IMG/VR virus record: IMGVR_UViG_3300028832_000001 | Coordinates: 164,007 to 228,006 of that record | Direction: 5' to 3' (one strand) | Length of the DNA stretch: 64,000 nucleotides | Origin: a virus | Taxonomy: Duplodnaviria; Heunggongvirae; Uroviricota; Caudoviricetes | In this document: positions 13,044 through 53,660 of the stretch, piece by piece | How positions within the stretch are numbered: position 1 is the first letter of the stretch | Layout: every line of letters begins with the position of its first letter | The notes under the pieces: generated by a model | Databases searched by the model: none | What the model was told of the DNA's origin: nothing | The model's input: only the letters and a program-made list of their open reading frames with translations | Translations under genes and position numbers: made by a program

Positions 13044-13595
13044 ATGAATCTTAATGAAGCAAAGCAATTTCTTAAAAGACATGGCTTTATCGTAGAAAGA
13101 AAGGGTGATTTCGTTGATCCGTCAACAAGACCTGAATTTTATGACCCGGATTACTATGCAGAAGATGGTTATGATGCTAGTAGTGAAGAAAGTGATTGTT
13201 CAAATTATGCTACCGAGGTTGAAAAATATTTAAAAACAAATTATCCTGATAAAAAGGTCGAAGTTAATTATGATATTTCTGACGATGGAGAATATATTAA
13301 ATATGAATGCGCTGTTGCTTTTATATTTGATCATCTTCCAACATTTGATGAAGTAACTGACTGTGAAGATATTTCTTATGACATTGCAAATGATGTAGAT
13401 GATTGTGGATGTCCATGGGATGATGGCGAAACTTTAATATATGCTGTTGTCAATGGAAAGAAACAAGATATATCTGATACTTATAATAAAAATCCAGAAG
13501 GCATAGAAAACGCTGAATATTTTGAAGTTGTTGAAATGTCTTATGGTACAAAACGAATTCCTGAACCAGAAGATCCTCGTGAACCTGAATGGTAA
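13044..13595 (+). CDS. acidic protein with shared N-terminal leader (putative capsid-internal protein)
   Basis: MNLNEAKQFLKRHGFIVE; late promoter, GAGG RBS, own terminator. Confidence 0.75.
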   Translation: MNLNEAKQFLKRHGFIVERKGDFVDPSTRPEFYDPDYYAEDGYDASSEESDCSNYATEVEKYLKTNYPDKKVEVNYDISDDGEYIKYECAVAFIFDHLPTFDEVTDCEDISYDIANDVDDCGCPWDDGETLIYAVVNGKKQDISDTYNKNPEGIENAEYFEVVEMSYGTKRIPEPEDPREPEW

Positions 13596-13612
13596 TTTAT
13601 TAACATGAAAAT

Positions 13613-13643
13613 AAAAAAGGATTGGATAAAACCAATCCTTTTT
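13613..13643. terminator. bidirectional intrinsic terminator
   Basis: A run-AAGGATTGG-loop-CCAATCCTT-T run between convergent genes. Confidence 0.8.
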
Positions 13644-13651
13644 AAATATTA

Positions 13652-13993
13652 TTAAAAACCATATTTAAGTTTTTGAACATAATAGTTCAGTGGTTTGTCA
13701 TCTTCATTTGCTGCATTAACACATTTGTTATAACGAGTTTGATTGAAGTATTTTGATCTTTCCTTGAAAATCATTTCGTGCATATCGTTCATCATTTTGT
13801 AACGGTGCATCATGAATTCATTAACAAGTTTTTCTGATGTAACAATATAATAATTAAGTGACTTTTTTAAATTATTTTGGTCTACTGCTTTAATATAAGT
13901 AATGCATTCATCATAACGGCCAGAAGCAAGAAACTTGCTAATATCTGCCATAACTTTTAAATCAGGTGGGAAAAGTTTTAGAAAGAATTTCAT
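13652..13993 (-). CDS. hypothetical protein
   Basis: Likely start MKFFLK with GGAG RBS. Confidence 0.65.
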   Translation of the reverse strand: MKFFLKLFPPDLKVMADISKFLASGRYDECITYIKAVDQNNLKKSLNYYIVTSEKLVNEFMMHRYKMMNDMHEMIFKERSKYFNQTRYNKCVNAANEDDKPLNYYVQKLKYGF

Positions 13994-14012
13994 TTTAATC
14001 TCCAAAAAATGG

Positions 14013-14231
14013 TTATTCCTTAATATTGATTTTGATTTGAGAACCTAATGTTCTGATCACAATATCTACGTTTTCTTTTGTAACAGGTTTATGTAATTTT
14101 CTCACTACATCTTCAGCCAGTGCATAAATCTGCTTTTCTGTCGCGCCATCGGCAACAGCAAGCAGATCTTGCCATACATCTGCAAGGTCATTAAGACCTT
14201 CTATATTATATCTGTCTGGAATATTAGGCAT
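14013..14231 (-). CDS. hypothetical protein
   Basis: 72-aa ORF overlapping pncA stop. Confidence 0.65.
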   Translation of the reverse strand: MPNIPDRYNIEGLNDLADVWQDLLAVADGATEKQIYALAEDVVRKLHKPVTKENVDIVIRTLGSQIKINIKE

Positions 14232-14811
14232 TGATTACATCAATCTGTTGACGCTGGAGACAGAGAATTGCAGCCTTCTGACCTTCTTCATCCAAATCAG
14301 CAATGCAGCTTGCATCGACCGTAATCTTCATATTCGGGAATGCAGCTCTGAGAATAACTGCGTTCGCAAGAACACAAATCGTGCTTACGAAACCCCAAAT
14401 TTCAATTTCGTCGAATTCAATACCGAGATTTCTGATATATTCAGGAAGATCGAGCTTACCGAATGTATACTTATCGACAGAATAGAAATTGTGCTTACCA
14501 TCTTGGTTCTTCTTCTGAAGTTCATCAAGAATAGTCTTTTCAATTTCCCAACCATCGGTCAGCTTAATGCAGTGCGGAACTGGAAGCTTCTGACCTTCCA
14601 ATGTTTCCTCATACGGCTTGCCTTCCATTGGAGGCCAACCAGTAGTAACCTGCATCTTGTTAAAGTGAGTATCATGTGTTGCAATGATAGCACCATCCCA
14701 GTGCTTAATCTTGTTAACAATATTAGGAACCTTCGCCTGTGCGAATGGGTTTGCGAGAGCACCAGTAATAAAGTCTACCTGTGCATCAACTAATAAGCCG
14801 AGTTTTGCCAT
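14224..14811 (-). CDS. pncA: nicotinamidase (isochorismatase/cysteine hydrolase family)
   Basis: LVDAQVDFITGAL, ATHDTH, PHC, K in VDKYTFG, GFVSTICV (D-K-C triad). Confidence 0.85.
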   Translation of the reverse strand: MAKLGLLVDAQVDFITGALANPFAQAKVPNIVNKIKHWDGAIIATHDTHFNKMQVTTGWPPMEGKPYEETLEGQKLPVPHCIKLTDGWEIEKTILDELQKKNQDGKHNFYSVDKYTFGKLDLPEYIRNLGIEFDEIEIWGFVSTICVLANAVILRAAFPNMKITVDASCIADLDEEGQKAAILCLQRQQIDVINA

Positions 14812-14871
14812 TGTTATATCCTCTCTTTTTATTTTTAAATTTAGTAAATTTTTTTGTGTTTGTAAATATGT

Positions 14872-15516
14872 TTATTTATTTTCAGCTTCCTTATAAAGCT
14901 TTAAAAATTCTCTTGAAATAAAATTCGTATGAATTCGTTTTTCTTCAAAAGGTTTGTCAGGTCCATGAACTGCGACATGCATGTTATATGCCAATCTTCG
15001 CATACATTGTAAACCTTCTTTGTCATGTTCGAGTTCTTCCGGGAAATCTCCATGCACTTCATTCCAATACTGACTTCCTACGACAGTCATGGAATGCATA
15101 AGAAAATAAGAATTAAGATGAGCAAATGCTAGTTCATTACCTGCACGTCTCGAAACTGTTATTCCTGCTGCATACTTATTACGCATAACATTTGCGGCAG
15201 AATAAAATACACGAGACATAAAATTGGCAAGTTGACCAGTAATTCCAGCATAATAAACTGGCGATGCAAAGATAAAACCATCGGCATTCTGTGCTTTTTC
15301 AATAAAGCGATTAACTAAATCGTTATCAAAAACGCAATGACCAAGCTTTTTATCTTTACAGACATTGCAACAAATGCAACCATTCATCTGTGGACCTAAC
15401 CACATATTATCGATTACATTATCGCCGAGAATTTTAAATTCTTCTTCGACTTCATGCAATGCCCTGGCAGTACAACCATCTCGGTGTGGACTACCATTTA
15501 CCATCAAAATATTCAT
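14872..15516 (-). CDS. iron-sulfur flavoprotein / NADPH-dependent FMN reductase (flavodoxin fold)
   Basis: NGSPHRDGCT, C-x2-C-x2-C-x7-C, FASPVYYAG. Confidence 0.85.
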   Translation of the reverse strand: MNILMVNGSPHRDGCTARALHEVEEEFKILGDNVIDNMWLGPQMNGCICCNVCKDKKLGHCVFDNDLVNRFIEKAQNADGFIFASPVYYAGITGQLANFMSRVFYSAANVMRNKYAAGITVSRRAGNELAFAHLNSYFLMHSMTVVGSQYWNEVHGDFPEELEHDKEGLQCMRRLAYNMHVAVHGPDKPFEEKRIHTNFISREFLKLYKEAENK

Positions 15517-16469
15517 TACTTTTCTGCCTCAAGTGCAATCAACGAGTTACCACAAGTAATACGGTCTGCGTCTTCTTCATGCGACGGAATGAAAACGATA
15601 ACCTGCCAACCTGCATCAACGAGCGGCTTTTCGAACTTTTCGTAAACGTCAAAATCAAATTCAGTAGTGAAGTTATTTACTGCTGCAGCTTCTGTTGCAT
15701 GGATAGGAGTAATCTTGACAATGAAACGATCCTTGTCGAAATACTTGTCCATGAGAGCAGGGTCAAGATTGCACTTGCCAGTTGCTGCAAAGTTCAGAGT
15801 ATACTTTCTACCAGCAGGAGGCGGAAGACGCTTTGCCAAATCCGAGATTTCCTGCAAGCTTAACGACTGGTTATTAAACATGTCGTTTCTATCAGCTTCA
15901 TCAAGGGTATTGATAGAGAACTGAAGACCAATACCACCATTCCACTTTGCATCGTAACCAAGAGCACACCAGTCTTGGAGGAATGCTTCAAGCTTCTTAT
16001 TGTTATTCGGAAGCATGGTAGAAACGACAGGATGATATTCCTTGAACCAGTTATTGGAAATATTACCAATATCACGAGCGACCTTAATTACGTTTGGATT
16101 CCAAGTAGGTTCGCCCATTCTTGCAAAGTGGACATTGAGTCTTTCACCTTGAGTGATCTTAGAGAATGCGATACCATTAACAATTTCGGACATCAATTCA
16201 AAGTAGGGGACATTTCCCTTGAAGCCGAACTTAGGACAGTCACAGAACTTACAGGATTCAAGACAACCCTTCTGGGTAGAAACCGTAACGACAAGCTTAT
16301 CCGCTACATCGACGGGTTTGTGAACGACCTTTTCGATTCTTTTGGTATAGCCTAAGAAATCTGCCTTAATGTTATTTTCTTTACCATAATCGCCTACGTA
16401 AAGATACTCCAAGTTGAGGTCTGTGTCCGAGACAATCATGCCAGTGTGTGTTTGAGTTATAGTTCTCAT
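15516..16469 (-). CDS. radical SAM enzyme, RlmN/Cfr-like
   Basis: VSTQKGCLESCKFC, RMGEP, LQFSIN, C-terminal ITCG. Confidence 0.75.
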   Translation of the reverse strand: MRTITQTHTGMIVSDTDLNLEYLYVGDYGKENNIKADFLGYTKRIEKVVHKPVDVADKLVVTVSTQKGCLESCKFCDCPKFGFKGNVPYFELMSEIVNGIAFSKITQGERLNVHFARMGEPTWNPNVIKVARDIGNISNNWFKEYHPVVSTMLPNNNKKLEAFLQDWCALGYDAKWNGGIGLQFSINTLDEADRNDMFNNQSLSLQEISDLAKRLPPPAGRKYTLNFAATGKCNLDPALMDKYFDKDRFIVKITPIHATEAAAVNNFTTEFDFDVYEKFEKPLVDAGWQVIVFIPSHEEDADRITCGNSLIALEAEK

Positions 16470-16570
16470 TTGTTATTCTCCATTAAAATACTAATGTTAA
16501 AAATTTAAAAATTTCTTCCCATGTGAGGGTTACTAATTCTTCGTCTGTAAACATGGTAAAATCTCCTTCA

Positions 16571-17001: not shown

Positions 17002-17481
17002 TTATGCCTTTAGTTTTTCTTCTAGTTTATGTAATACTTCCTTATATGTCGTGAAAAGGATAGCGTTACTCCCAGCCCCAACAAAATCAGCACAATTTTC
17101 TGGTTTGTCATCGATTAATAAACGATTTGGTTTCGCATGTTCAACCTTATTAAAAGACTTATCGCAAATAATAATATTTGCCTGATCTATTTCAGGACAG
17201 TTACATTCAAGCCAATATCGTTTTCCTCGTTTACCAGACTTAGAGAAAATAGCGGATAGAACACCAAGTTTAAAATTATACTTCTTCTGTAATTCAAGAA
17301 TGCCTAGATAAAGATCATGACCTTCAAGAAGCCAAGGCATATCAATCCAGAATTTAGCACCAATCTTACATACTTTATCCCAATTCGCTTTTCCCGTAGG
17401 TTTTCGAGCGTTGTAAAAATCAATCTGGTAATCCCAGTTGGTTAATACACCGTCCATATCTAAATATACTTCATCTATCAT
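17002..17481 (-). CDS. HAD-family 5'(3')-nucleotidase-like protein
   Basis: YLDMDGVL motif I, LLIDD motif IV. Confidence 0.7.
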   Translation of the reverse strand: MIDEVYLDMDGVLTNWDYQIDFYNARKPTGKANWDKVCKIGAKFWIDMPWLLEGHDLYLGILELQKKYNFKLGVLSAIFSKSGKRGKRYWLECNCPEIDQANIIICDKSFNKVEHAKPNRLLIDDKPENCADFVGAGSNAILFTTYKEVLHKLEEKLKA

Positions 17482-18473
17482 AGAGTAGAAATGTTTAAAA
17501 GTTCAGAAATTGTTTCGTGTCCAGTTATTTTATGGAAATTTTCTTTAGGCATATCGACCGAAATACTTACTTCCATATTAGGCATGTCTATATAAAGGTC
17601 AGGAACGATAATATTGCCTACTGTATCTCGTTTCTTAATTCCGTCAATATTATAAATTGAATCTGATGGAACATCAAACAAATGTAATACTCTTGCAGGA
17701 TTAATCTGTTTAAAACCAAGAATATCAAAGTTTATAATCTTGCACATGCTATGCAATGCCGGAATTTTCTTCTGTAACCAGGAAATATTCTTTTCGATTT
17801 CTTTCTTATACTTTTCAAAAAGAATCTTTCCTCGACCAGTATTCTTAAATCCTTGAATCAGAACCCTTCTTCCCTGTAAAGCAGGAAGATCATGCCTATT
17901 AAGAATACCAGCGATTACATGAATAACGACCCTATCACCAAGTTTGTCTATGAATTTAAAATCTTCCTTACAATGTGCGTCATGCAATGTAATTCCAAGG
18001 CCATAAATGAGTTCTTCATCGATTAATTTCTTAATAAGGTCTTTATTTTCTTTGATATGAATCTGATTAATATTAAGGTTAACGATGATTTGTCTTGCCT
18101 TGAGAATTCCCAGAATAGTTATAAGTTCTGGATGTGCCAAAGGATTTCCACCAGTAATATTAACTTCAAGTCCAGGATAGAAAGAATTAATCATAGGCAA
18201 CAGCTTTGACAAATCAGCATGCTTTGTTGCACTATTACTTCCTTCAGAACAGAACTGACAACCTGCATTACAAAAGTCTGTAATTTTTATAGTTATATTT
18301 TCTGGCGCTTCATAAATGAAATTTTCAGAATCTGTCTCAACCCAACGGTTGACACGAGTTCCTTTAGATCCTGGTTCGTTTACGTAGTAACCAGTCTCTT
18401 TGACCTTCGTACCGTCAGTATAAATAGTAGTACGATGATTGCCATTTATATAACTAGTTATAATATTACTCAT
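17478..18473 (-). CDS. radical SAM protein
   Basis: CNAGCQFC CxxxCxxC, ITGGNPL. Confidence 0.8.
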   Translation of the reverse strand: MSNIITSYINGNHRTTIYTDGTKVKETGYYVNEPGSKGTRVNRWVETDSENFIYEAPENITIKITDFCNAGCQFCSEGSNSATKHADLSKLLPMINSFYPGLEVNITGGNPLAHPELITILGILKARQIIVNLNINQIHIKENKDLIKKLIDEELIYGLGITLHDAHCKEDFKFIDKLGDRVVIHVIAGILNRHDLPALQGRRVLIQGFKNTGRGKILFEKYKKEIEKNISWLQKKIPALHSMCKIINFDILGFKQINPARVLHLFDVPSDSIYNIDGIKKRDTVGNIIVPDLYIDMPNMEVSISVDMPKENFHKITGHETISELLNISTL

Positions 18474-18527: not shown

Positions 18528-18528
18528 C

Positions 18529-19259: not shown

Positions 19260-19267
19260 TATAAATA
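19260..19267 (+). promoter_or_regulatory. T4-like late promoter TATAAATA(ATATAA)
   Basis: Exact motif directly after terminator. Confidence 0.75.
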
Positions 19268-19295: not shown

Positions 19296-21053
19296 ATGAC
19301 TTTTAACGAAGCAAAAAAGCTATTAAAATCAAAGAATATGTATTTTATCAAGGAAAATGCTGCATTTGGCTCTCTCGAAGAGTATAAGGCCAAATTGAGC
19401 GACTTGTGGGCAGATAACTATACAACTGATGATCCAGATGAAGCATCTTTTGACGAAATTCTCGCCATGGATGAAGACGCTGAAGAATTGGTCAAGAGTT
19501 ATTACGAACGTGAACTTGACCCGACAGAAGCTGTTGAGGAATTACACGATACTTTAGCAAGTGTTCCGGAAAATACAGAAGATTTCGAAGAAGTTGTCGA
19601 TGATGAAGGTGAAGATGCTGAATATATCGATGATGAAGAAAATATTGATGCATTAGATGGCGATGATAACATCGCTTATGATGAATCTGATTTAGATAAC
19701 TTCGAAGACGATGAAAATTATGTCGCAGATGATCTCGAACCGGAGGAAGAATTGAATTTTGGTGAAGCTGTCAGATATTTAAAGAAACATGGCTATGCAC
19801 TTAATGAAGATGCACAGTTACTTTTGGAAGCATGGTATGATAATATCGGATTAGACGATACTGATAAGTTGTTTATCCAGAGAACCATGGAAACTTATGC
19901 TTCTGCTAAGTCTAAGCCAAGAACACTCGGTGGTCAACGTATTAAGGGTGGTTACATGACACCTGCAAAACGTGCTGATTACTATGGCAAGTTCGAACAT
20001 ATTTTGGAATTGATTGCAGATCGTCCGAATGCTACCAGAAATATGAGAACTGTTAGAAAGGAAATGGAACTTCTTCAGGATGATAACTGGTATCAGTTCA
20101 TTCATGAAAAGAACCCAGACCTTGACCAAGATACAATTGTTGAAATCTTCGGTCATGCAGCAATCGGTGAAACTGCTGACTTGACACCAGAAGAAGCTGA
20201 GCAGCGTCGTGCAGAACGTGCTGAAGCTGAACGTCGTGCAGCAGAAGCAGAACGTGAACGTCGTGAACGTGAAGCTGCAGCAGAACGCGAACGTCAACGT
20301 CGTGAAAACCCAGAACCAGAAGACATGATTACTCATCGTGAATTCGAAGAAACTCCGGAAACTGTTACTACCCGTCGTGTCACTCGTCACCGTATGAGAA
20401 CAGTTAACCGTAATTATACTGACCACTATGCATTCCCAGCTGCAACAATCAAGATTAATATCGATGTTACTGGCGACGATGAATCCAAGGCAGAAGTTGA
20501 TGAAATTATTTCTGCAATCAAGGATAAGTTACGTCTTGCTTACGAAGATGATGAAGGTAAGTATGCAATGTGTAATGTTGATGCAGCAGTTGTTGATGTC
20601 GAAGAAGATGGTGCTACAAAGCAAGAATATCATATCGTTATCAAGATGCCTGCAGAAATCAAGGAAGAAATTGCTCAGTTCGCTCAGGTCGAACTTGAAG
20701 ATACATTCCCGTTCGTTAATTCTGAACATCCAGAAGATTCTGTTTATGAATTCGATAATACTGGAAACCGTGATGAAATCGAAGACGAAACTTACGAATA
20801 TGATGAACCAGTTGTTCAGAGAGGTCGTAGACGTCCACAGACTACTGGAGCACGTCGTGTTAGCAGAACACCTCGTTGGAGAGTTCACTATACATTAGCT
20901 GATGAAAACGGTCGTGATAGTAGAATTCAGAGAACTGTTATTGTTCCTGCAGCAACTGCTGAAGATGCTAAGAACAAGGTTGAAAACCCAGAAGACATCG
21001 ATAATGCATACGCAACTGGTGTATTCGCTGTAACAGGTGTTGATAGAGTCTAA
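19296..21053 (+). CDS. large acidic protein with two copies of the leader motif (putative capsid-internal polyprotein)
   Basis: ATG at 19296 after GAGAGG; MTFNEAKKLLKSKNMYFIKE and internal LNFGEAVRYLKKHGYALNE; E/A/R-rich helix. Confidence 0.75.
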   Translation: MTFNEAKKLLKSKNMYFIKENAAFGSLEEYKAKLSDLWADNYTTDDPDEASFDEILAMDEDAEELVKSYYERELDPTEAVEELHDTLASVPENTEDFEEVVDDEGEDAEYIDDEENIDALDGDDNIAYDESDLDNFEDDENYVADDLEPEEELNFGEAVRYLKKHGYALNEDAQLLLEAWYDNIGLDDTDKLFIQRTMETYASAKSKPRTLGGQRIKGGYMTPAKRADYYGKFEHILELIADRPNATRNMRTVRKEMELLQDDNWYQFIHEKNPDLDQDTIVEIFGHAAIGETADLTPEEAEQRRAERAEAERRAAEAERERREREAAAERERQRRENPEPEDMITHREFEETPETVTTRRVTRHRMRTVNRNYTDHYAFPAATIKINIDVTGDDESKAEVDEIISAIKDKLRLAYEDDEGKYAMCNVDAAVVDVEEDGATKQEYHIVIKMPAEIKEEIAQFAQVELEDTFPFVNSEHPEDSVYEFDNTGNRDEIEDETYEYDEPVVQRGRRRPQTTGARRVSRTPRWRVHYTLADENGRDSRIQRTVIVPAATAEDAKNKVENPEDIDNAYATGVFAVTGVDRV

Positions 21054-21103: not shown

Positions 21104-22432
21104 TTAGAATGTCTTAATAAATGCGGTATAACCTAAGTAAGCGTTATAAATGTCATTTACATGGGCAAGTTCTAATGGAGAGTGCATATTCAGAATTGGA
21201 ACACCTGCATCAAGAACATTGATATTCAATTCACAAACCATACTTGCGATTGTTCCACCGCCACCAACATCGACCTTGCCAAGAGAATCAAACTGATACT
21301 TAACTCCTGCATCCTTCATAACCTTTCGGATATAAGCAATAAATTCAGGATTTGCGTCAGCACCACCAGACTTACCACGACCTCCATTATACTTAGAGAA
21401 CATAATACCACCATTTAACTTAGCAGAAGATTTCTTATCATAAGCGTCTGCATAAAGTGGGTCATAAGCTGCAGTAACGTCAGAAGAAAGCATACGAGAA
21501 CGTGCTAAGTATGTAGCAAATTCAACTTCATCCTTCGGTCTCAAGACACAACGTAATACGTCTTCAAACCATCTCGATTTTGCTCCTGTAGCACAGCAAG
21601 AACCAATTTCTTCCTTATCTACTAATACAACACCAGATGTGACTTCTGGAAGCTCCTGGAGCGACAGAACAGCCATTAATGAGGTAAATGCGCAAACTCT
21701 ATCATCTTGACCATAACCAGCAATCAAGGACTTATCAAAGCCAGAATATCTTGCTTTACCTGCAGGAACAATTTCAAGTTCTGCAGAAACTAAATCTTCT
21801 TCTTCAACTCCATATTTTTCCTTAAGGAACTGTAAAACCCATTCCTTAACCTTTTTCTTATCCTTATCTTCAGTTTCGATTTCAGTCGTTGCTACGAGAA
21901 TATCGAGCTTTTCACCATTAATGAAATCACTTGCTTTCTTTTCTGCAAGTTTCTTATCAAGGTGAGGAAGAAGGTCACAAATACAGAAAATCGGATCATT
22001 CGGATCTTCACCAATAGAAACCTTTACAGTGTTACCGTCAATAGTGCAAATAACACCATGAATAGCAAGCGGAGTAGTTGTCCATTGATACTTCTTGATA
22101 CCACCATAATATTGTGTATCAAAGTAAGCAATTCCATCTGATTCATAAAGTGGCTTTTGCTTGACGTCGATTCTAGGAGCATCAATATGAGCACCGAGAA
22201 TGTTTACTGCTATGTTTGCCTTACCAACAATAAATGCTGCAAAATTCTTATTTTTATTCTTGAAATAAACCTTTTCACCTGGCAACAAAATACCAGAAGT
22301 ATGTTTATATTGCCTAAAACCAGCAAGAATAGCAAGACGTTCAGCTTCATCGACACAAAGACGTTCAGTCTTCGCGGTTGAAATAAAATTAATATAATCT
22401 GTGATTAAGTTTGTTTGATTTATTATACTCAT
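21104..22432 (-). CDS. M18 family aminopeptidase
   Basis: GAHIDAPR, YYGGIKKYQW, GYGQDDRVC, DKEEIGS, SSDVTAA, NMHSP. Confidence 0.9.
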   Translation of the reverse strand: MSIINQTNLITDYINFISTAKTERLCVDEAERLAILAGFRQYKHTSGILLPGEKVYFKNKNKNFAAFIVGKANIAVNILGAHIDAPRIDVKQKPLYESDGIAYFDTQYYGGIKKYQWTTTPLAIHGVICTIDGNTVKVSIGEDPNDPIFCICDLLPHLDKKLAEKKASDFINGEKLDILVATTEIETEDKDKKKVKEWVLQFLKEKYGVEEEDLVSAELEIVPAGKARYSGFDKSLIAGYGQDDRVCAFTSLMAVLSLQELPEVTSGVVLVDKEEIGSCCATGAKSRWFEDVLRCVLRPKDEVEFATYLARSRMLSSDVTAAYDPLYADAYDKKSSAKLNGGIMFSKYNGGRGKSGGADANPEFIAYIRKVMKDAGVKYQFDSLGKVDVGGGGTIASMVCELNINVLDAGVPILNMHSPLELAHVNDIYNAYLGYTAFIKTF

Positions 22433-22440
22433 ATAAATCA

Positions 22441-22468
22441 AATATAAAAAAATAACGGGTTTTGTAAA
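22441..22468 (-). promoter_or_regulatory. sigma70-type promoter TTTACA-N16-TATATT inside hairpin terminator
   Basis: AATAACGGGTTT-tgt-AAACCCGTTATT perfect 12-bp stem. Confidence 0.75.
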
Positions 22469-24025: not shown

Positions 24026-25129
24026 TTACTGTTTTAAAGCATCTTCGATAATCATGCCATGGTGGAAACCAAGTTTTGGTAAATTATCAAGCTTAAACCA
24101 GCCTACATCTGCAGCATCATCACCAGCAACTGCCTTCTTCTTGTCCTTACCAGGAACATGAACAACAAATGCTGTATCAATAATGCGGAGTCTCGGGTCA
24201 AACATATGACTATATGTTTTAATCTGAGTAAACTTTTCAACTGGAATGTCAAGTCCAGCTTCTTCCCTAAATTCTCTCTGAGCTGCATGTTCAAGACTTG
24301 CATCTGGCTTTTCCATTTCACCAGTTTCCTTATTCTTAAATGCAGAATGATTAAAGAATCCACCAGGAGTGCACCAATGACCCATGAAAGGAGGTTTCTT
24401 TCTACGAATCAACATAACTTCATCGCCAGAAATTGCACAAACATCAACAGTGTTTGCGAATGCTCCCCAGCCCTGTTTCTTGTAGTTTTCAACCCACTTC
24501 TTTTCCAAATCCGCATAATTTGTCGGATTCTGGTTATAAAGACATGTAGAAATAATATTATTCTTTGCATCAATTTCACCTTCATGACGAATAAAATTGA
24601 ATACAACCTTACTAATATACTTCTGAACATCCTTATAGTGACATTCTGGATTAACTCTAAAGATTTCTCTAACAGCACTGCTAGAAATACCTTCAGTCTT
24701 GAGATTGTCAACAATAGTGCAATTTGCTTGCTTATAAGCAACAGCTGCGTCTCTTGCGAAGACGAGGAACTTATAAGTATTCAGTAAACGGTTACTATAT
24801 AACCACTTACCAGCAACGAGACTCTTCCATTCATCATCGCCAATAACGATAGTAATTTCATTCGGGTCAACTTGACGATAATTAACCCAAAGATATTCAT
24901 ACATTCTGTTAGTTTGAATATCAATATCGTAATCAACATTCTTAGATGCTAATGCGACTTTGACCATCTGCTTACGTGCACCTGCGGGTGTGCGATTGGT
25001 CTTTTCGTCATTATCTGTAACAAGAATGTGAAGTTTATCGCCAGCTCTCATTCTTTTCTTGACAGCTTTGATAATTGCTTCATGTGCATGTGTGAATGGG
25101 TCAAACCAGCTTCCGAATATATAATGCAT
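24026..25129 (-). CDS. bifunctional NadD-like nicotinate/nicotinamide mononucleotide adenylyltransferase + Nudix (ADP-ribose pyrophosphatase-like)
   Basis: FGSWFDPFTHAH (HxGH-like), IVIGDD..W....FLVFAR and ISSSAVR (NadD motifs); C-terminal Nudix box PGG...AAQREFREEAG, AGDDA. Confidence 0.8.
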   Translation of the reverse strand: MHYIFGSWFDPFTHAHEAIIKAVKKRMRAGDKLHILVTDNDEKTNRTPAGARKQMVKVALASKNVDYDIDIQTNRMYEYLWVNYRQVDPNEITIVIGDDEWKSLVAGKWLYSNRLLNTYKFLVFARDAAVAYKQANCTIVDNLKTEGISSSAVREIFRVNPECHYKDVQKYISKVVFNFIRHEGEIDAKNNIISTCLYNQNPTNYADLEKKWVENYKKQGWGAFANTVDVCAISGDEVMLIRRKKPPFMGHWCTPGGFFNHSAFKNKETGEMEKPDASLEHAAQREFREEAGLDIPVEKFTQIKTYSHMFDPRLRIIDTAFVVHVPGKDKKKAVAGDDAADVGWFKLDNLPKLGFHHGMIIEDALKQ

Positions 25130-25149: not shown

Positions 25150-25178
25150 AATATAGCAAAACAATTGTTAGTTGTCAG
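25150..25178 (-). promoter_or_regulatory. sigma70-type promoter CTGACA-N17-TATATT
   Basis: Overlaps stop of upstream gene. Confidence 0.7.
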
Positions 25179-26247
25179 CCCTAACAATCGTCTCGCCATC
25201 AAAGTCAGCGAAATGTTCCTTCATGTTGTTAATTGTTTCCATTGGAACATTATGGATAGAACCGAAATCATTTGCCATACGGTAAACTGAAACGTTATAT
25301 CCATGTGCTGCTGCTTCGTTCAAATAAGGCTTTAATTCCTTATGCTTTACGAAGGTATTAGAAACAATTACAAAAGAATCTTCACCCTTTAATGCATTGA
25401 ATACATCATTGAAGCACTTGTTATGTGCAACACCTAACAATGCAGGATTGAACTTATATTCTCCAGCTTCATTAATCCAGAAATTATCAGATTCGAAATG
25501 GCTAGCCTTATGTCCTTGGGACTGCAAGCTAGCAAGTAACTTCTTTGCAAAAGTAGACTTGCCGGAACCTGGAATACCACGAACAATGACCAATGTCTTA
25601 CCATCGTCTTTTGGTTGTAACTCATGGATTCTTACTGGTCTGTAATAAGATTCCCAGTTAACGTTATTTTGCACTAATTCTACTCCTTTATGATTGCACT
25701 TTGTTGTCTGTGCGAATTCATGTGTATGACCATGAACAAGATACGTAATGAATGTTCCTTCAGAATCATAATAATTTAATGCAGAATTATCAGAATCCTT
25801 ATAACCCTTATCATCTATATCATTATAGGTATAATGCTGCAAAAGATAATTTACACCATTATGAGTTAACAAAATATGGTTATCACGAACTAAAGTAACC
25901 TTTGGAAATTCCTCGATTACCTTCGATAACTTCTTGAAGATTTCATAGTCATGATTTCCCAATAACCAGTACATATGCTTGAAATGCAACTTGCTGTAAT
26001 ACTCTCTAAACAAGTCTACTAACTTGCTACCTGGAGTTCCAAGGGTGAAATCACCAAGGAAGAAAACAGTAGTCTCGTCGTCAACAACATCATTCCATTG
26101 CTTCTCAATATCTGCGTTCATTTCATCAATTGTTGCATACTTTCTTGTTCTATCGAAATGGTCTTCGTAGCTAGTACATAACTTACGATGGTTTAAATGT
26201 AAATCGCTTGTAAAGACAATCTTATTGTCATCTATTGTTATTTTCAT
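25168..26247 (-). CDS. calcineurin-like metallophosphoesterase fused to P-loop (AAA_33/PNK-like) kinase
   Basis: TSDLH, LGDF, LGNHD, HGHTH then VRGIPGSGKST, SNTF, HNVP. Confidence 0.85.
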   Translation of the reverse strand: MKITIDDNKIVFTSDLHLNHRKLCTSYEDHFDRTRKYATIDEMNADIEKQWNDVVDDETTVFFLGDFTLGTPGSKLVDLFREYYSKLHFKHMYWLLGNHDYEIFKKLSKVIEEFPKVTLVRDNHILLTHNGVNYLLQHYTYNDIDDKGYKDSDNSALNYYDSEGTFITYLVHGHTHEFAQTTKCNHKGVELVQNNVNWESYYRPVRIHELQPKDDGKTLVIVRGIPGSGKSTFAKKLLASLQSQGHKASHFESDNFWINEAGEYKFNPALLGVAHNKCFNDVFNALKGEDSFVIVSNTFVKHKELKPYLNEAAAHGYNVSVYRMANDFGSIHNVPMETINNMKEHFADFDGETIVRADN

Positions 26248-28416: not shown

Positions 28417-29532
28417 CTATTTAGAAATTATTTCAATTTCATAGAAATACTTTTGCATGATACCAACCAGTTTTTCATACCAGATTTTACCATCATTAAT
28501 CCATTCTTCGAGATTTGGCATTTCCATGTTAATTAAATCACCAACATTCTTCCATCTCAGACACTTCTTCATTCTGAACATAGTCTTAAGCTGGTTAATA
28601 ATAATTTCATATCTTTCCTTGGTAAGATACTTTGTGATATTTCCACACATATCTTTAAACAAGTCTTCAAGTTCTTTTTGGTGTTCCTTATCAGTACAAG
28701 CATTCATGTATAAAATACCATTTTTGGTAATGAGATGAATGTCACCGATAACATAATAGCTCAGTCCACGCTTCTCTCTGATTTCCTGGCAGAATGGAGA
28801 ATTTAAACCTTCACATAACATCTGCATACCAACTAAAGCTGGGAGATATTCGGTCTTAATAACGGGATGCTTACTGAAAACAAATACATTAACTTTTTCA
28901 GAATCTGTAACTGGGAGAATTTCTTGTTTCCTATCTCTAAACTTAAGGGTTACAGGTTCCGGTAAGGTGTCTAAATATTCAATATTGCTAAAGTCTGTTT
29001 TATCCTTGCCAACTTCAACAATTCTAAGAGGTTTCGTATATTGTTCTTTTGCGACCTGAAGCATGTCTGCATAAGTAAAGGCTTCAATATCTGCTGGAAT
29101 ACCAGTCGGGTCGTGAACATCGAAATAGTTATAAATTAAGTTTGTGTAGTGACCATCATTTGGGTCTTCATAAGAATCGAGAAGTTCTTGCATAACGATT
29201 TTCTTTTCATTTTCAAAATCCTTCTCTGTAATATTTACATAATCGTTTAAAAGTGCTCTGACAAGTTCTTTTTTAAAGTCGGATGGTAATTTATCTTCGA
29301 GTCCTCTAAAATAAACTACAACATAATTTTGTGAAGTGGATGCATTAAAATCAATACAATCATTTGTGAATCTGTCCATATATTTATCAACACTCTTCGT
29401 GATCAAATGTTCCATCAAGTGTGATATTCCCCTACGACCTGGTTTTTCATATGCACAACCCGTAGGGAATACAATATTTAACGATGTTAATCCTAATTTA
29501 TTCTTCTTAAATACATGTCCTGCTTTTATCAT
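28417..29532 (-). CDS. M16 family (insulinase-like) zinc peptidase
   Basis: GISHLMEH HxxEH, FNASTS, F..EK.IVMQE, IREKRGLSY. Confidence 0.85.
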   Translation of the reverse strand: MIKAGHVFKKNKLGLTSLNIVFPTGCAYEKPGRRGISHLMEHLITKSVDKYMDRFTNDCIDFNASTSQNYVVVYFRGLEDKLPSDFKKELVRALLNDYVNITEKDFENEKKIVMQELLDSYEDPNDGHYTNLIYNYFDVHDPTGIPADIEAFTYADMLQVAKEQYTKPLRIVEVGKDKTDFSNIEYLDTLPEPVTLKFRDRKQEILPVTDSEKVNVFVFSKHPVIKTEYLPALVGMQMLCEGLNSPFCQEIREKRGLSYYVIGDIHLITKNGILYMNACTDKEHQKELEDLFKDMCGNITKYLTKERYEIIINQLKTMFRMKKCLRWKNVGDLINMEMPNLEEWINDGKIWYEKLVGIMQKYFYEIEIISK

Positions 29533-31953: not shown

Positions 31954-32892
31954 TTATGCTCTTAATTCAGATGCGTTTCGCTTTGTACATGCCAAACCAA
32001 TCATCTTTTTAACAGTTTCTTCACCGTAATGGTCAACATATGCACGAACATGACTTGTAATTGCTGGATATTTACCATACCAAACTGGAATTTCAGTAAA
32101 TGTAACAGTATCACCAAGTTTCATATTTGCAATTTCATCAATATGTTTACCGCCAACGCATAAATCAAATAAACGTCCTAATGCACTTTTAGCACGATCA
32201 TTTGCAGTACCATCTATAAATTTTTTAAGGCAAGCATCAAGCATGGATTCATCTTTACATGCATATGTAAGAGTTACATTACCTGCAGTATAGCCATCAC
32301 CTAGACGTTTTTTTGGCGCAGGTGTTTGTTTATTTTGACTTTGAATATCGTCAAGTTCCTGGTCCATAGCATCCATATAAGCATCTTCGCGAATGAGCTT
32401 AGAACACTTATTTTGGAGTAACTTTTTAGCTTCTGTTAGCTTTGCCTTTGCAGCATTAATTGCACGAGAACCAAGTGCTTTATATAATCCGTCAAAATTC
32501 AAACCATTAAAATCGGCATTTAAGTCAAATGGCTGACCTGGATTATTTTTCTTATATGCTAAAAATTCACTAGTTGCTGCGATAAACATAGCTTTTAATT
32601 CTGTAATATCATTAGGATCTTCGTCTCCAGTTAACCAACCGCAATCATCGATTGCAATTCTAATTATACCAGGTAAAAATCTGTCTTGACCTTTTTCTCT
32701 CCAAAAGAGATGAGAAAATGTAGCACGTGCTTGTTGAATAAGCTCTTCAACAGAAGAACAGCCAGTACGAGTTAATGCATCTGAAGATTTTATCCATTGT
32801 ATTGCTTTTCTAATGCCATCAGAGTTAGCATCTTCTTTAAGAAGTGTATATCCCTTATTTTTAAGTAAGCCTTTAGCTTCTTGTAAATTCAT
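31954..32892 (-). CDS. protein with two copies of the leader motif (putative capsid-internal polyprotein)
   Basis: MNLQEAKGLLKNKGYTLLKE|DA and internal KLTEAKKLLQNKCSKLIRE|DA. Confidence 0.75.
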   Translation of the reverse strand: MNLQEAKGLLKNKGYTLLKEDANSDGIRKAIQWIKSSDALTRTGCSSVEELIQQARATFSHLFWREKGQDRFLPGIIRIAIDDCGWLTGDEDPNDITELKAMFIAATSEFLAYKKNNPGQPFDLNADFNGLNFDGLYKALGSRAINAAKAKLTEAKKLLQNKCSKLIREDAYMDAMDQELDDIQSQNKQTPAPKKRLGDGYTAGNVTLTYACKDESMLDACLKKFIDGTANDRAKSALGRLFDLCVGGKHIDEIANMKLGDTVTFTEIPVWYGKYPAITSHVRAYVDHYGEETVKKMIGLACTKRNASELRA

Positions 32893-32915: not shown

Positions 32916-32923
32916 TATTTATA
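32916..32923 (-). promoter_or_regulatory. T4-like late promoter TATAAATA(ATATAA)
   Basis: Exact motif directly after terminator. Confidence 0.75.
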
Positions 32924-33068: not shown

Positions 33069-33076
33069 TATTTATA
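33069..33076 (-). promoter_or_regulatory. T4-like late promoter TATAAATA
   Basis: Overlaps stop of 33072 ORF. Confidence 0.65.
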
Positions 33077-34355
33077 AGGCGTCTCTGATTAATTTATTGA
33101 TTTTATCCTTATTGAAATTATGTTTGGTTATTTCAGGGTGTGTCTTAATAACTTGACATAATTTAAGAATTTCGTCGAAATATTTTTGTTGCTTAGCCTT
33201 TGGCAACTTATTAAATTGGTTACTAAAGAGCTTTGTAACAAGATTCTTAGCAATCTTAGATACACTGTTCTTAGAACGCTGGATAGCATCGATATAATCT
33301 GGAAGTTTCTGGTGTAATTTTGCTTCATATTCAAGTTCGTCAGAAGCATAAGCACCTGAAGCCATTACTTGATGAGCATCATAGTCATGTGCATCTTCAG
33401 TTCCATCTAATTGCTTATTATTAGCCTGAATATAGTGAGTTAATTCATGATGAAGAACTTCCTGGAAGAAATCACCAAAATATTCTTCCATAATCTTATC
33501 AACAACCTGCATTGGTGTTTCTGCATCAGCTTCAACTTCTTCTACAGCATCCTTGAACTTGAATGAATCGTCAACATAAGTATAGCTACTATAACCATAA
33601 TTACCACCGTAACCATATCCGCCATAGCCATAACTACCATAATAACCATTGCTGCTGGAACCATATCTATCACGGAAACGAGCATATAATGCATCACGTT
33701 CTGCGGTTCGACCAGTAGTCGGAGTTGCTGTCTTTTTCTTACCCTTGTTCTTTTCAAGGTTAGCTAAAATCCTATCAACTTGTTCTTGACCTTCTGAAGC
33801 TTTTTCTCTAGCTTTTGGGAATGGAATTGTATTGATTTTTCTACTTGTATACTTACCTTCTGTAATTTTCTTAGTTCCTTTTGTAGTAGAACCAGCGGTC
33901 TTAGTTGTAGCAGCAGAAATAACGTTTGGTAAGTTAATCATCAAAATGACTGGATCTGTATCTGGGTTTGTATCACCCATGGCGTTAGCATATAATGCAC
34001 CTTTTCCTCTACCTTTCTGTGCATCATAATCACTACGAATATCTTTTTTATCACCATAGAGTTTAACAGTCAATGCTTTCATTCTGACTGGTTCTGGACG
34101 ATAAGTAACAGGAACCATCAATGCTGGGATTTCGATTGTAATTGTCTTTTCTACATCTTCGCCATCATAAACCTTGTCAAGCATCTGTGTGAGCTTTTGT
34201 CTTAACAATTTCATGATACGTGCTTTATATTTTGTAACAAGTTCCTCTACGTCAAACGTTCTATTTTCTGTGACTAAACGATTTTCAGAAATGATATAAC
34301 CTGACTCTGTAAGAACCTTTAATGCCTTATATATTTCCAGTTCATTGAGCTTCAT
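33072..34355 (-). CDS. leader-family late protein with C-terminal HExxH zinc-metalloprotease-like motif
   Basis: MKLNELEIYKALKVLTESGYIISE; VLHHELTHYIQ...ELEYEA; G/Y/S low-complexity linker. Confidence 0.7.
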   Translation of the reverse strand: MKLNELEIYKALKVLTESGYIISENRLVTENRTFDVEELVTKYKARIMKLLRQKLTQMLDKVYDGEDVEKTITIEIPALMVPVTYRPEPVRMKALTVKLYGDKKDIRSDYDAQKGRGKGALYANAMGDTNPDTDPVILMINLPNVISAATTKTAGSTTKGTKKITEGKYTSRKINTIPFPKAREKASEGQEQVDRILANLEKNKGKKKTATPTTGRTAERDALYARFRDRYGSSSNGYYGSYGYGGYGYGGNYGYSSYTYVDDSFKFKDAVEEVEADAETPMQVVDKIMEEYFGDFFQEVLHHELTHYIQANNKQLDGTEDAHDYDAHQVMASGAYASDELEYEAKLHQKLPDYIDAIQRSKNSVSKIAKNLVTKLFSNQFNKLPKAKQQKYFDEILKLCQVIKTHPEITKHNFNKDKINKLIRDAL

Positions 34356-34377: not shown

Positions 34378-34385
34378 TATTTATA
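34378..34385 (-). promoter_or_regulatory. T4-like late promoter TATAAATA(ATATAA)
   Basis: Exact motif directly after terminator. Confidence 0.75.
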
Positions 34386-43617: not shown

Positions 43618-43625
43618 TATAAATA
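43618..43625 (+). promoter_or_regulatory. T4-like late promoter TATAAATA
   Basis: Exact motif. Confidence 0.75.
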
Positions 43626-43642: not shown

Positions 43643-43975
43643 ATGACTATAAATGAAGCAAAAGAATTTCTTAAAAAGAATGGATATAAAATATTAAAAG
43701 AAGATGTGAACTCAGATGAAGCACCGGCATGGGAAGAAGGTTGGAAAGAATTATCTTTTAATGAAAAAAAGGCAGCACGCTGGCTTATGCAGAATTTTAA
43801 TAAAGATCATAGAATTAATGAAGAAGATTTAGAAAAGTCTTTAGATGTAATAATTATTGAAGCAATTTTAGACCATAAAGATGAATGGCTTGAATTTATG
43901 TCTGATGAAAATATTGTAGATATGGTTTATGAATATTTAAATTCATTATCAGTAGATGGTCTTAATAACTTATAA
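43643..43975 (+). CDS. acidic leader-family protein (putative capsid-internal protein)
   Basis: MTINEAKEFLKKNGYKILKE|DV; ATG at 43643. Confidence 0.75.
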   Translation: MTINEAKEFLKKNGYKILKEDVNSDEAPAWEEGWKELSFNEKKAARWLMQNFNKDHRINEEDLEKSLDVIIIEAILDHKDEWLEFMSDENIVDMVYEYLNSLSVDGLNNL

Positions 43976-43994: not shown

Positions 43995-44435
43995 ATGAAA
44001 CTTCAAGAAGCATTAAAGTTATTAAATAATTCTGGTTATATTTGTGAATCTACAGTTGTTGCAGCACCGACATTTGAAGAATATAAAAATGAAGTCTATC
44101 AGTTGCTTTCAAATCGTCTCGGTCAAGAACGTGCTGATATGATTATAGATTATGAAGAAAGAGAACTTCAGGATTATGCTTATAGGCAAGGTTGGTCAGT
44201 TAAGCAAGGTGCCGAAGCAGTCATTGAATGGACAACACCAAGTGAAAAACAGAAAGAAATTTTAGATTTCATGTATAGTAACTGGGATGCTGATAATGAA
44301 CGTTCTTACGGTCCAGATTCTGAATATGACGCAGTATGTGAACGTGCACGAGAACAATTCGAAGATTCAGAATCGCTTATTCCTAGCGATACTTATGAAT
44401 TTGCGGTCCTTTATGGTAAAGAGATTAATGAATAA
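43995..44435 (+). CDS. acidic leader-family protein (putative capsid-internal protein)
   Basis: MKLQEALKLLNNSGYICE|ST; GAGG RBS. Confidence 0.75.
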   Translation: MKLQEALKLLNNSGYICESTVVAAPTFEEYKNEVYQLLSNRLGQERADMIIDYEERELQDYAYRQGWSVKQGAEAVIEWTTPSEKQKEILDFMYSNWDADNERSYGPDSEYDAVCERAREQFEDSESLIPSDTYEFAVLYGKEINE

Positions 44436-45154: not shown

Positions 45155-45183
45155 AATATAGAAAAAGGATTGACTTTCGTCAA
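45155..45183 (-). promoter_or_regulatory. sigma70-type promoter TTGACG-N17-TATATT inside GAAA hairpin terminator
   Basis: TTGAC-GAAA-GTCAA core. Confidence 0.8.
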
Positions 45184-45207
45184 CCCTTTTTTGAACATAC
45201 ATGGTAA

Positions 45208-51119: not shown

Positions 51120-51130
51120 ATTATTCTTCC

Positions 51131-51328: not shown

Positions 51329-51342
51329 TTCAAAGTCTCGTT

Positions 51343-51498: not shown

Positions 51499-51525
51499 TT
51501 TTACTCCTTTTCTTTGTCTATAAGT

Positions 51526-51798: not shown

Positions 51799-51805
51799 AT
51801 TTTAA

Positions 51806-51834
51806 AATATAGAAAAAGAGCTGACTTTCGTCAA
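51806..51834 (-). promoter_or_regulatory. sigma70-type promoter TTGACG-N17-TATATT inside GAAA hairpin terminator
   Basis: TTGAC-GAAA-GTCAG core plus T run. Confidence 0.8.
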
Positions 51835-51862
51835 CCCTTTTATAATTTTGATAATTTAAAAA

Positions 51863-52270
51863 TTAATATATTTCTATTCTATGTTTGTTAATAATAATAC
51901 GTCTATGTTCAAATTTATCTTTCCATTCTTCACCATAAACGCCGGTTTTAAATTTTTCCTCAACTTTCTTAATTGCATAGTTCTCAACTTCTTTATAGTC
52001 GTCAAGATAACAATCAGAAAGATTAAGTTTAATCCTATAACCTTTATTGTTAGTAATATCTATATAAGGAACTACAGCCAACTTATATTTGGATTTTTTA
52101 TCCAATTCATCATAACATCTTTCGCAGTATCTTTTGCCTCTATATGTTAAATATGCTTCATCTGACCATAGTTCATCACCACATCTTGCGCAATAACCTT
52201 GTACATGGCTTTCTTTAATGACTTCATAGCCATTTTTTGAAAGTAATTGTTTTGCTTCGTCTAAATTCAT
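51863..52270 (-). CDS. leader-family protein with Zn ribbon
   Basis: MNLDEAKQLLSKNGYEVIKE|SH; CARC...CERC. Confidence 0.75.
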   Translation of the reverse strand: MNLDEAKQLLSKNGYEVIKESHVQGYCARCGDELWSDEAYLTYRGKRYCERCYDELDKKSKYKLAVVPYIDITNNKGYRIKLNLSDCYLDDYKEVENYAIKKVEEKFKTGVYGEEWKDKFEHRRIIINKHRIEIY

Positions 52271-52286
52271 TTTAACCTTCTATGCT

Positions 52287-52616
52287 TTAGTCTTCATACC
52301 ATTCATCGCAGGTAAGGTCAGCGAGCAAGTTCTGTACACAAGTATCAGTTTCACACGAGTTAAACTTGACACCATCTTCATATGCATCTTTTGCCGCACG
52401 ATCATCATTATAGTCTTCTCCGGCATATCCTATGATAAATGCTCGCTTAAAGTTATTATAATCGGCATCATCACCCCAGTATTTATACGAGCGGTCCCAG
52501 AGTTCGTCAAAAATCTCTTCAGGGGTATATGATAATCTTTCATTCAGTTGTCTGGTTTCCTTGATAAGCCTGTACCCTTGTTTCTGGAGTAATTGTTTTG
52601 CTTCAGCTAAATTCAT
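52287..52616 (-). CDS. acidic leader-family protein
   Basis: MNLAEAKQLLQKQGYRLIKE|TRQLNE. Confidence 0.75.
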   Translation of the reverse strand: MNLAEAKQLLQKQGYRLIKETRQLNERLSYTPEEIFDELWDRSYKYWGDDADYNNFKRAFIIGYAGEDYNDDRAAKDAYEDGVKFNSCETDTCVQNLLADLTCDEWYED

Positions 52617-52638
52617 TTTAACCTCTTCTTATTAAAAA

Positions 52639-53052
52639 TTAACGCATACGTGCTCTAGCTGCAGCAATTCTTGTTGCATTAGCTTTATGAATTGCCTTAA
52701 AAATAAGGCTACGGACAACTTCTTCATATTCTGCACGTTGATCTGCATCGCAGAAATCAGCTTCTGGCATAACAAATTCAAATGAAGTTGCATCATTTTC
52801 AAAAACATCAGTAACAACACTATCTTGCCATAAAGAAGTATCATCTATAAAATATGTCTTAATTAAATTAATATATTTTGGATTTTCTGTCGAAACTATG
52901 ACGTATGGATGTGGCAAATCACCATTTTCAACATCATAATCCGAAGTTCCTTCAAATTCGCAGTCAATGCTCATTCCTGGTAATGTTGCAGCTTCTTTAA
53001 TAAGTTTGTAACCATTTTTTGTAAGTAATTGTTTTGCTTCTGTTAAATTCAT
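52639..53052 (-). CDS. acidic leader-family protein
   Basis: MNLTEAKQLLTKNGYKLIKE|AA; AAGGAG RBS. Confidence 0.75.
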   Translation of the reverse strand: MNLTEAKQLLTKNGYKLIKEAATLPGMSIDCEFEGTSDYDVENGDLPHPYVIVSTENPKYINLIKTYFIDDTSLWQDSVVTDVFENDATSFEFVMPEADFCDADQRAEYEEVVRSLIFKAIHKANATRIAAARARMR

Positions 53053-53077
53053 TTTCAATCTCCTTGTTATTTTATAT

Positions 53078-53085
53078 TATTTATA
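53078..53085 (-). promoter_or_regulatory. T4-like late promoter TATAAATA(ATATAA)
   Basis: Exact motif; drives three tandem leader genes. Confidence 0.75.
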
Positions 53086-53096
53086 GAAATTTTGTA

Positions 53097-53104
53097 TATA
53101 AATA
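53097..53104 (+). promoter_or_regulatory. T4-like late promoter TATAAATA
   Basis: Divergent partner 11 bp away. Confidence 0.7.
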
Positions 53105-53132
53105 AAGAAACGTTTAAGAAAAGGTGAAAAAT

Positions 53133-53660
53133 ATGAATTTAAATGAATGGACATTGAATCAAGCAGCAGGTTTATTGGATGAAGGTTTTAAACCGTTCGG
53201 TTCTACTGAACACTATACTACTGAAGAAATTCGGAAAATAGCAAAACAGAGAGAAATGTTGCATGAAGAAACAGATTCTGATTCTTCTTTAGATCAAATC
53301 TTTGAAACTCTTACCCAGACTCGTGATATTTGGTTAAAAGAATTACAAGAAACATTGCCCGAAGGCTATCATGCTACTGCCTATACTGGTTCTTGTGCTA
53401 CAGGATTATCTAAGAGAATTCCCGGAATTAATATTACACATGATGTTGAAAAAGAACCCGGTAAATATATATTAGTAAATAACGAGAATCCTAGAAAAAT
53501 TGAATTTGAAGGCGTCGGACCATGCACAACAAATGGTTGGGAAAAAAATATAGCAATTCACTATCCAGGTGTCAGACGTATGGCTACAAGATTCACTCTT
53601 CCTGGAATGTATAACTATAAGAAAACCGTCGCTAATATTGTTAAGGATATGATTGGATAA
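53133..53660 (+). CDS. late protein with degenerate leader
   Basis: MNLNEWTLNQAAGLLDE|G. Confidence 0.7.
   Translation: MNLNEWTLNQAAGLLDEGFKPFGSTEHYTTEEIRKIAKQREMLHEETDSDSSLDQIFETLTQTRDIWLKELQETLPEGYHATAYTGSCATGLSKRIPGINITHDVEKEPGKYILVNNENPRKIEFEGVGPCTTNGWEKNIAIHYPGVRRMATRFTLPGMYNYKKTVANIVKDMIG

Follow-up and report, generated by a model that had tools for sequence, protein, structure and literature searches.

We describe a short peptide tag that is shared by nine genes in a 64,000-nt stretch of viral DNA (positions 164,007 to 228,006 of the IMG/VR record IMGVR_UViG_3300028832_000001, or G000:C1:164007-228006; below, the window) and that ends in a site of the type cut by prohead proteases. 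From comparisons of sequence we give even odds to the reading that the tag is a clade-specific N-terminal propeptide of the kind known from phage T4 as the capsid-targeting sequence (CTS). Somewhat short of even odds we place the broader picture, in which a clade of ~400-kb T4-like rumen phages would rely on a single transferable address of 20 residues to bring dozens of unrelated and rapidly changing proteins per genome into the capsid, to be injected along with the DNA, and would build prohead core proteins beside the protease gene with the same tag. The complete record has 415,750 bp, direct terminal repeats and a G+C content of 34%, and the sequence is present in bovine gut metagenomes from more than one study. 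Judged by its genes, the phage is distantly T4-like: its major capsid protein is of the gp23 type (PF07068, E 8e-70), with a cyanomyovirus protein as the best cultured match (33% identity). Neither a megablast of 15 kb of the window nor a tblastn of a 30-aa leader against 50,697 phage records returned a cultured relative.

The tag is 18-20 residues long, with the consensus M-N-L-x-E-A-K-x-L-L-x-K-N-G-Y-x-[LIV]-[LI]-K-E. All nine open reading frames (ORFs) that a previous, sequence-only reading of the window had listed as sharing this leader do translate as it wrote them. A 20-column hidden Markov model (HMM) of the motif matches eight of them at a domain E of 1e-8 to 6e-5, and the ORF starting at 34355 more weakly (E 0.003), with the motif offset by 6 residues. 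On the other hand, the degenerate forms claimed at 53133, 18567 and 23737 gave no HMM match (E 68 or worse) and were dropped, while two further internal copies were found in the window (Table 1). Iterative HMM searches of the complete genome, translated in six frames, gave 33 copies in 26 genes, or ~4% of the genes of this genome; with the seed HMM, the real translation contained 21 domains at E<=0.01 and the reversed and shuffled ones none. The description of the tag as an N-terminal leader holds for most copies, 23 of the 33 lying directly after the initiator Met (residue 1-3), but not for all. Another five are the second copy of a protein whose N-terminus is tagged as well, and the remainder are near-N-terminal, tandem (without cargo between them, at G000 360920/360983) or C-terminal (at G000 115054 and in the 90-aa gene before the scaffold gene). 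The number of 26 carriers is a lower bound, since tag-like N-termini below the threshold exist at G000 274267, 277037 and 3333 (MNLEYAAYLLNESHILNED, MKKGFYMNLDYAAYLLNENYILNED and MKPEVKKALYLLENIGYTVKP). In a clustering of all 663 N-termini, the tag family was by far the largest, followed by a group of 10 signal or lipoprotein peptides.

To see how the motif behaves beyond one genome, we compared 1.84 billion representative proteins with a profile built from eight leaders (E<=0.001). This gave 108 clusters, of which the HMM re-detected 106, with the motif at residue 1-3 in 97 of these; more than 100 cargo families are seen in metagenomes. The sequence-only reading had proposed that the end of the leader is a prohead-protease site, and the clusters agree with this. 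The Glu of an [LI]-x-E falls on residue 18 or 20 in 90 of 96 N-terminal leaders from distinct clusters (94%); for the long form this count is biased because the search profile held I-K-E. All nine leaders of the window end in [LI]-x-E, too. The short form, GY-[ILV]-x-E with the Glu at residue 18, was not favoured by the profile and still keeps [LI]-x-E; the long form is GY-x-[LIV]-[LI]-K-E, with the Glu at residue 20. As a background, 16% of cargo windows of equal size hold an [LI]-x-E. Furthermore, the conservation of the alignment columns collapses at residue 21, right after the Glu of the site.

A protease that could use this site is present. The genome encodes a gp21-type prohead protease (PF03420, E 7e-29; phrog_207, E 4e-56), which was one of the checks proposed with the first description of the tag. 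Residue 55 of the gp23-type capsid protein aligns to residue 1 of mature T4 gp23, directly after L-T-E54, and the putative scaffold protein holds 21 [LI]-x-E sites in 325 aa (genome-wide, 1.34 per 100 aa). Both observations fit a protease with the T4-like specificity [LI]-x-E.

The surroundings of the protease gene also bear the tag: two conserved genes with several copies of it (Families A and B in Table 1) flank the protease gene, and a third tag gene lies by the scaffold gene. In all orthologs of Family A an [LI]-x-E stands directly before the C-terminal domain (VIKE|GFGTAEGT, TLDE|GFGTAEGT, KLNE|DFGDTEGT), also in those in which the motif has shifted elsewhere, and Family A is a candidate for a prohead core protein. 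We also observed that Family A and its orthologs in three relatives (L057, L059 and L061) contain one to four tandem KVPPWAKL[DNE]EGKK units, each with an L-x-E site. Taken together, Family A, Family B and the 90-aa protein look like core components that are heavily processed by the protease; in T4, gp67, gp68 and gp22 are components of this type. A fold search with the two-motif protein of the head module found no match in BFVD. The N-terminus of the protease itself (MEAKKLLNE[AQ]AIAESK, conserved in the clade, that is, in this genome and the relatives L038-L062) has EAKKLL in common with the helix of the tag and contains the sites L-N-E, I-A-E and L-N-E, so that it may be a self-targeting propeptide. 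It joined the leader family in a loose clustering of N-termini, where it is too short to carry weight. A complex prediction for leader residues 1-30 and the protease scored 0.00, was made without controls and counts neither way.

Next, we turned to the timing of expression. The sequence TATAAATA is the late promoter in this phage, as in T4: 109 of its 143 occurrences lie within the non-coding 9% of the genome, and it stands upstream of the gp23, scaffold, protease and sheath-like genes. The claim that the nine ORFs sit behind this promoter, directly or within an operon, could be confirmed, as TATAAATA is found 17-68 nt upstream of the ORFs starting at 13044, 19296, 32892, 34355, 43643 and 53052, and the remaining ORFs (43995, 52616 and 52270) lie downstream in operons with gaps of 16-22 nt. 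Genome-wide, 17 of 26 carriers have TATAAATA within 120 nt, compared with 90 of 637 other genes (odds ratio 11.5, p 1e-8), and eight more stand behind it in operons (gaps <=22 nt), giving 25 of 26; the sole carrier with neither is the one with an SLT domain (see below). An extended form of the promoter, TATAAATAATATAAA, is enriched at carriers (9 of 16 carrier promoters vs 9 of 91 of other late genes, p 8e-5), which suggests that promoter and leader move together or that there is a subclass of strong promoters. The carrier promoters considered here include those at 12968, 19260, 32916, 34378 and 53078 of the window. Another element, GGGTTGACGAAAGTCAACCCTTTTTCTATATT, consists of a hairpin and T-run with TTGAC in the stem, followed by TATATT at -10 spacing, and by its sequence resembles a terminator joined with a promoter of the sigma-70 (early) type. 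It occurs 11 times in the genome, including 897-913, 45169-45185 and 51820-51836 of the window (all on the minus strand), and is very abundant in metagenome runs. None of the 11 genomic copies has a carrier behind it.

One might ask whether the conserved unit is a chance pattern or a feature of the nucleotide sequence, such as a translation-initiation region or a recombination site, and the enrichment of TATAAATAATATAAA, with its hint that promoter and leader travel together, points in this direction. However, codons at the conserved residues vary freely (Leu is TTA, CTT or CTC; Gly is GGT, GGA or GGC), which indicates that the peptide, rather than the DNA, is under selection; in addition, internal and C-terminal copies exist and the 108 clusters share the motif at the protein level. 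With the varying synonymous codons and the controls without a single match we regard this explanation as refuted, its probability being next to nil.

The cargo proteins are not related to each other. An all-vs-all BLAST of residues 23 to the end of the carriers gave two weak pairs only, in agreement with the claim that the mature parts differ. Searches by leader region and by cargo region found close orthologs only. The statement that the cargo is mostly acidic is right for six of the nine carriers of the window, the other three being about neutral. We were not able to find any support for the proposed anti-restriction or DNA-mimic roles: a domain could be recognised in one cargo only, namely that of an SLT lytic transglycosylase (E 6.5e-20), and this cargo has a further match to a PHROG that comprises internal virion proteins with an endolysin domain.

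One of the internal copies can be traced to its origin. In the 312-aa ORF, residues 1-153 match P0028 (155 aa, 80% identity), a protein that in relatives stands alone at the syntenic position. The counterpart of residues 152-312 is P0034 (156 aa, 70% identity), which in L032 also stands alone, with a Met, a leader and a late promoter of its own. The internal copy is there because two cassettes of leader and cargo have been fused in frame; its Gly-Tyr is lost and its L-I-R-E is kept. Tandem arrays of carriers are common in this genome and in its relatives.

For the 137-aa carrier, we predicted the structure with AlphaFold2 (AF2), using an alignment of 5 rows (mean predicted local distance difference test score, pLDDT, 81). 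The model has a helix of moderate confidence at residues 3-12 and coil at residues 13-26, and the cargo is confidently folded (residues 27-136). The least confident stretch, with a pLDDT below 50, is residues 19-22, the I-K-E|A junction. In this model the tag thus appears as a unit of its own that sits on an exposed linker. A fold search with the cargo model (window 52642-53052) gave no match at E<=0.001 in PDB or BFVD.

The model also bears on a similarity of the tag to a known domain. Among 79 of the clusters, Pfam gave almost nothing besides partial matches to the PASTA domain (PF03793), so that the tag could be seen as a PASTA-like half domain, or a generic N-terminal helix cap, which binds a ligand or stabilises the protein and has no role in sorting. 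The matches lie exactly over the motif (profile positions ~10-37 of 64), the two share a helix with a following strand and the pattern l-e-e-A-k-x-x-L-x-x-x-G-[LFY]-x-v, and the summed repeats pass the gathering score in P0012 (36.2 bits) and in P0094. However, ~27 of the 64 profile positions are covered, only the helix-strand part is matched, no single stretch is significant and no complete domain was found; a unit of 20 residues is too short for the PASTA fold, and in the AF2 model it is detached from the cargo. Besides, PASTA domains are extracytoplasmic, whereas the carriers have no signal peptides, which the phage's real secreted proteins do have. Most likely, both share a small helix-strand motif without being homologous, and a PASTA-like function of the tag appears improbable to us.

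According to a further explanation, the tag is the recognition leader for a modifying enzyme, as in ribosomally synthesised and post-translationally modified peptides (RiPPs): a radical-SAM or other enzyme would bind the leader and modify the protein behind it, and the leader might then be removed. All three radical-SAM matches of the genome other than NrdG do lie within ~3 kb of carriers, and several carriers have Cys/Gly-rich stretches. Still, this association consists of three genes and was noticed after the fact; most carriers have no Cys-rich stretches, most cargo is 70-560 aa long and at least one is well folded in the AF2 model, unlike the cores of RiPPs, and no leader-recognition domain of the RRE (RiPP recognition element) type was detected. 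We consider this explanation very improbable.

Table 1. Carriers of the tag in the window, radical-SAM matches, and genes of the head module (G000, positions on the complete record).
Feature	Position (strand)	Leader and other motif copies	Promoter or context	Remarks
183-aa carrier	window 13044..13595 (+)	leader MNLNEAKQFLKRHGFIVE 13044-13097, HMM E 2e-6	late promoter TATAAATA 12968-12975	very acidic
585-aa carrier	window 19296..21053 (+)	leader 19296-19355; internal copy 19755-19808 (+) NFGEAVRYLKKHGYALNE	late promoter 19260-19267	very acidic
312-aa carrier	window 31954..32892 (-)	leader 32833-32892; degenerate internal leader 32383-32442 (-) KLTEAKKLLQNKCSKLIRED	late promoter 32916-32923	two-cassette fusion
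427-aa carrier	window 33072..34355 (-)	weak, offset leader MKLNELEIYKALKVLTESGYIISE 34284-34355	late promoter 34378-34385	
110-aa carrier	window 43643..43975 (+)	leader 43643-43702	late promoter 43618-43625; first gene of two-carrier operon	acidic
146-aa carrier	window 43995..44435 (+)	short-form leader MKLQEALKLLNNSGYICE 43995-44048	19 nt behind previous carrier (43643..43975)	acidic
137-aa carrier	window 52639..53052 (-)	leader 52993-53052	late promoter 53078-53085; first of three tandem carriers	
109-aa carrier	window 52287..52616 (-)	leader 52557-52616	second in three-carrier operon	
135-aa carrier	window 51863..52270 (-)	leader 52211-52270	third in three-carrier operon	Cys4 zinc-ribbon-like cargo
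radical-SAM match	window 15516-16469 (-)			
radical-SAM match	window 17478-18473 (-)			
radical-SAM match	G000 149890-150093		by carrier operon 151000-153102	
gp21-type prohead protease	G000 89806-90471			
putative scaffold	G000 85068-86045		directly upstream of gp23	phrog_237 E 0.003
Family A	G000 89048-89701	N-terminal tag, second copy		PPWAKL[DNE]EGKK-type repeats; C-terminal four-helix domain (pLDDT >90)
Family B	G000 91668-92222	one or two tag copies		Cys-rich region after the tag copies
90-aa gene		motif copy at its end	just upstream of scaffold gene	

Several of these genes deserve a comment. The 585-aa carrier is a distant paralog of the gene at G000 129357-130643, which shows the same spacing of two copies. 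The 427-aa carrier contains a low-complexity stretch rich in Gly and Tyr (GYYGSYGYGGYGYGGNYGYSSY) and, behind it, an HExxH motif (HELTH); its match to SprT-like proteins is weak (E 0.09), the protein may be a metalloprotease, and in the ESM Atlas it found unnamed viral clusters only. Over part of 51863-52270 there are short metatranscriptome contigs of low depth, for which DNA carry-over is possible, and an apparent 1,166-bp joint from 51857 to 53024 has one side of only 34 nt, which lies in a repeated element of high depth; neither was used as evidence. The carriers have as neighbours, all on the minus strand, the genes at 11618-12901, 21104-22441, 24026-25129, 25168-26247, 28417-29532 and 31144-31890 of the window; among them are an NAPRTase, an M18 aminopeptidase, an NMNAT-Nudix fusion, a phosphoesterase fused to a P-loop kinase, an M16 peptidase and an Amidase_2 (endolysin-like) protein.

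How does the tag compare with known systems? In T4, IPI-III, Alt and other proteins reach the scaffolding core by means of head propeptides of 10-20 residues; cleavage at [LI]-x-E takes these off, and nothing else is conserved among the highly diverse internal proteins (PMC9026906, PMC3012670, PMC5694885). The tag resembles the T4 CTS (of IPI, IPII, IPIII, Alt and gp24; cut by gp21) in that it occupies the N-terminal 10-20 residues of unrelated proteins, ends in [LI]-x-E, is expressed late in the presence of a gp21-type protease and stands before polymorphic, swappable cargo genes (PMC9026906, PMC3012670, PMC5694885). Given these lengths, it is not a longer signal than that of T4, as had been claimed (PMC5694885, PMC9026906). 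There are also differences: the tag forms a unit of helix, turn and extended segment where T4 has a short helix, it has ~26 carriers per genome instead of a handful, and it also serves as a repeated building block, with internal, tandem and C-terminal copies. In the giant phages phiKZ, 201phi2-1 and SPN3US, many head proteins are cut after Glu by a gp21-related protease, and the phiKZ-type propeptides may carry several sites (PMC5694885); these, however, are often longer than 100 residues, have no common sequence and use an A/S/G-x-E site, whereas here one conserved tag of 20 residues with [LI]-x-E is reused. The cargo-loading peptides of encapsulins and the C-terminal helix-turn-helix of the P22 scaffold are likewise short addresses that dock cargo inside an HK97-fold shell or scaffold, but they sit at the C-terminus, no protease cleaves them off, and they make direct contact with the shell protein.

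The proposal of capsid targeting and cleavage thus stands in part. All of its predictions that could be tested in silico turned out as expected (the protease, the L-T-E of gp23, the [LI]-x-E end of the leaders, late genes and the neighbourhood of the protease), and this support is correlative. Several observations weigh against a CTS-like propeptide, in addition to the bias in the long-form count and the PASTA matches over the motif. Compared by eye, the consensus MNLxEAKxLLxKNGYxLIKE does not resemble the MKTYQEFIAE type of T4, and most of the cargo is acidic, while T4 internal proteins are basic. The C-terminal and tandem copies are not explained by a pure leader, and 10 of the 33 genomic copies have no [LI]-x-E. 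The SLT cargo could be an ejected wall-cutting protein or, equally, an endolysin. Finally, in 3-4 of ~100 metagenomic carriers a transmembrane-like segment comes straight after the tag, which is odd for capsid cargo.

Some of these points would fit a reading in which the tag is a general docking or oligomerisation module of late proteins, with a hub other than the prohead core (for example an assembly chaperone, a tail or baseplate factor or a membrane-associated platform) and not necessarily cut. The internal, tandem and C-terminal copies and the few carriers with a transmembrane-like segment agree with such a role, as do proteins made up almost entirely of repeated motif copies (P0012, in which 6 stretches match), weak tail-protein matches on two carriers of the window and the build of the tag, since a helix with an extended segment suits strand addition onto a partner. 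On the other hand, a docking module leaves unexplained why 94% of the clusters end the tag in [LI]-x-E, why conservation stops there and why tag genes are repeatedly sited beside the prohead protease gene, and AF2 shows no pairing of two copies within one protein. We regard it as about half as likely as a CTS-like propeptide.

The siting beside the protease gene also delimits the spread of the tag. Among relatives with 48-100% protease identity, the tag is mostly found near the protease gene, and a few such loci are without it. The tag gene is often within ~1 kb of the protease gene, and in several relatives it starts 20-130 nt after the protease stop codon. In contrast, 31 protease loci of T4-like phages with <=47% protease identity contained no tag. 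Among complete genomes, there are 11 copies in a relative of 424 kb, 9 in one of 411 kb and none in the distant jumbo T4-like phages of 242 and 362 kb. This distribution indicates that the tag is specific to one clade. Scans of IMG/VR with stricter patterns found 1 and 3 loci only. A unit of this kind exists outside the clade as well: on a JGI contig of 5.7 kb (L030), the acidic 344-aa protein P0012 has at least six copies of a variant motif (EAKRVLARAGIKVVRE), and three neighbouring proteins contain internal copies. This contig shares no gene with our genome, and PHROGs were uninformative.

If the tag is indeed a CTS-like propeptide, it would work as follows. An amphipathic helix at residues 2-12 would lead, by way of a turn at Gly, into a short extended stretch with [LI]-x-E at its end. 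Late in infection the tag would dock its protein to the scaffolding core of the prohead; once the shell is closed, the gp21-type protease would cut after the Glu, perhaps with a second cut after the L-x-E at residues 3-5, and the freed cargo would remain inside the head and be ejected with the DNA. The proteins with several tag copies that are encoded beside the protease gene would be components of the core. Cassettes of promoter, leader and cargo would be duplicated, swapped and sometimes fused in frame, and the latter would explain the internal copies.

Should the tag prove to be a capsid address, the injected proteins of uncultured jumbo phages could be read straight from the genome, and a large pool of early-acting effectors would be indicated. 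The targeting logic of T4 would then be general, with a peptide particular to each lineage, and the tag would be a possible handle for packaging and protein delivery. Should it not be a capsid address, it would still be an undescribed, strongly selected sorting or docking peptide.

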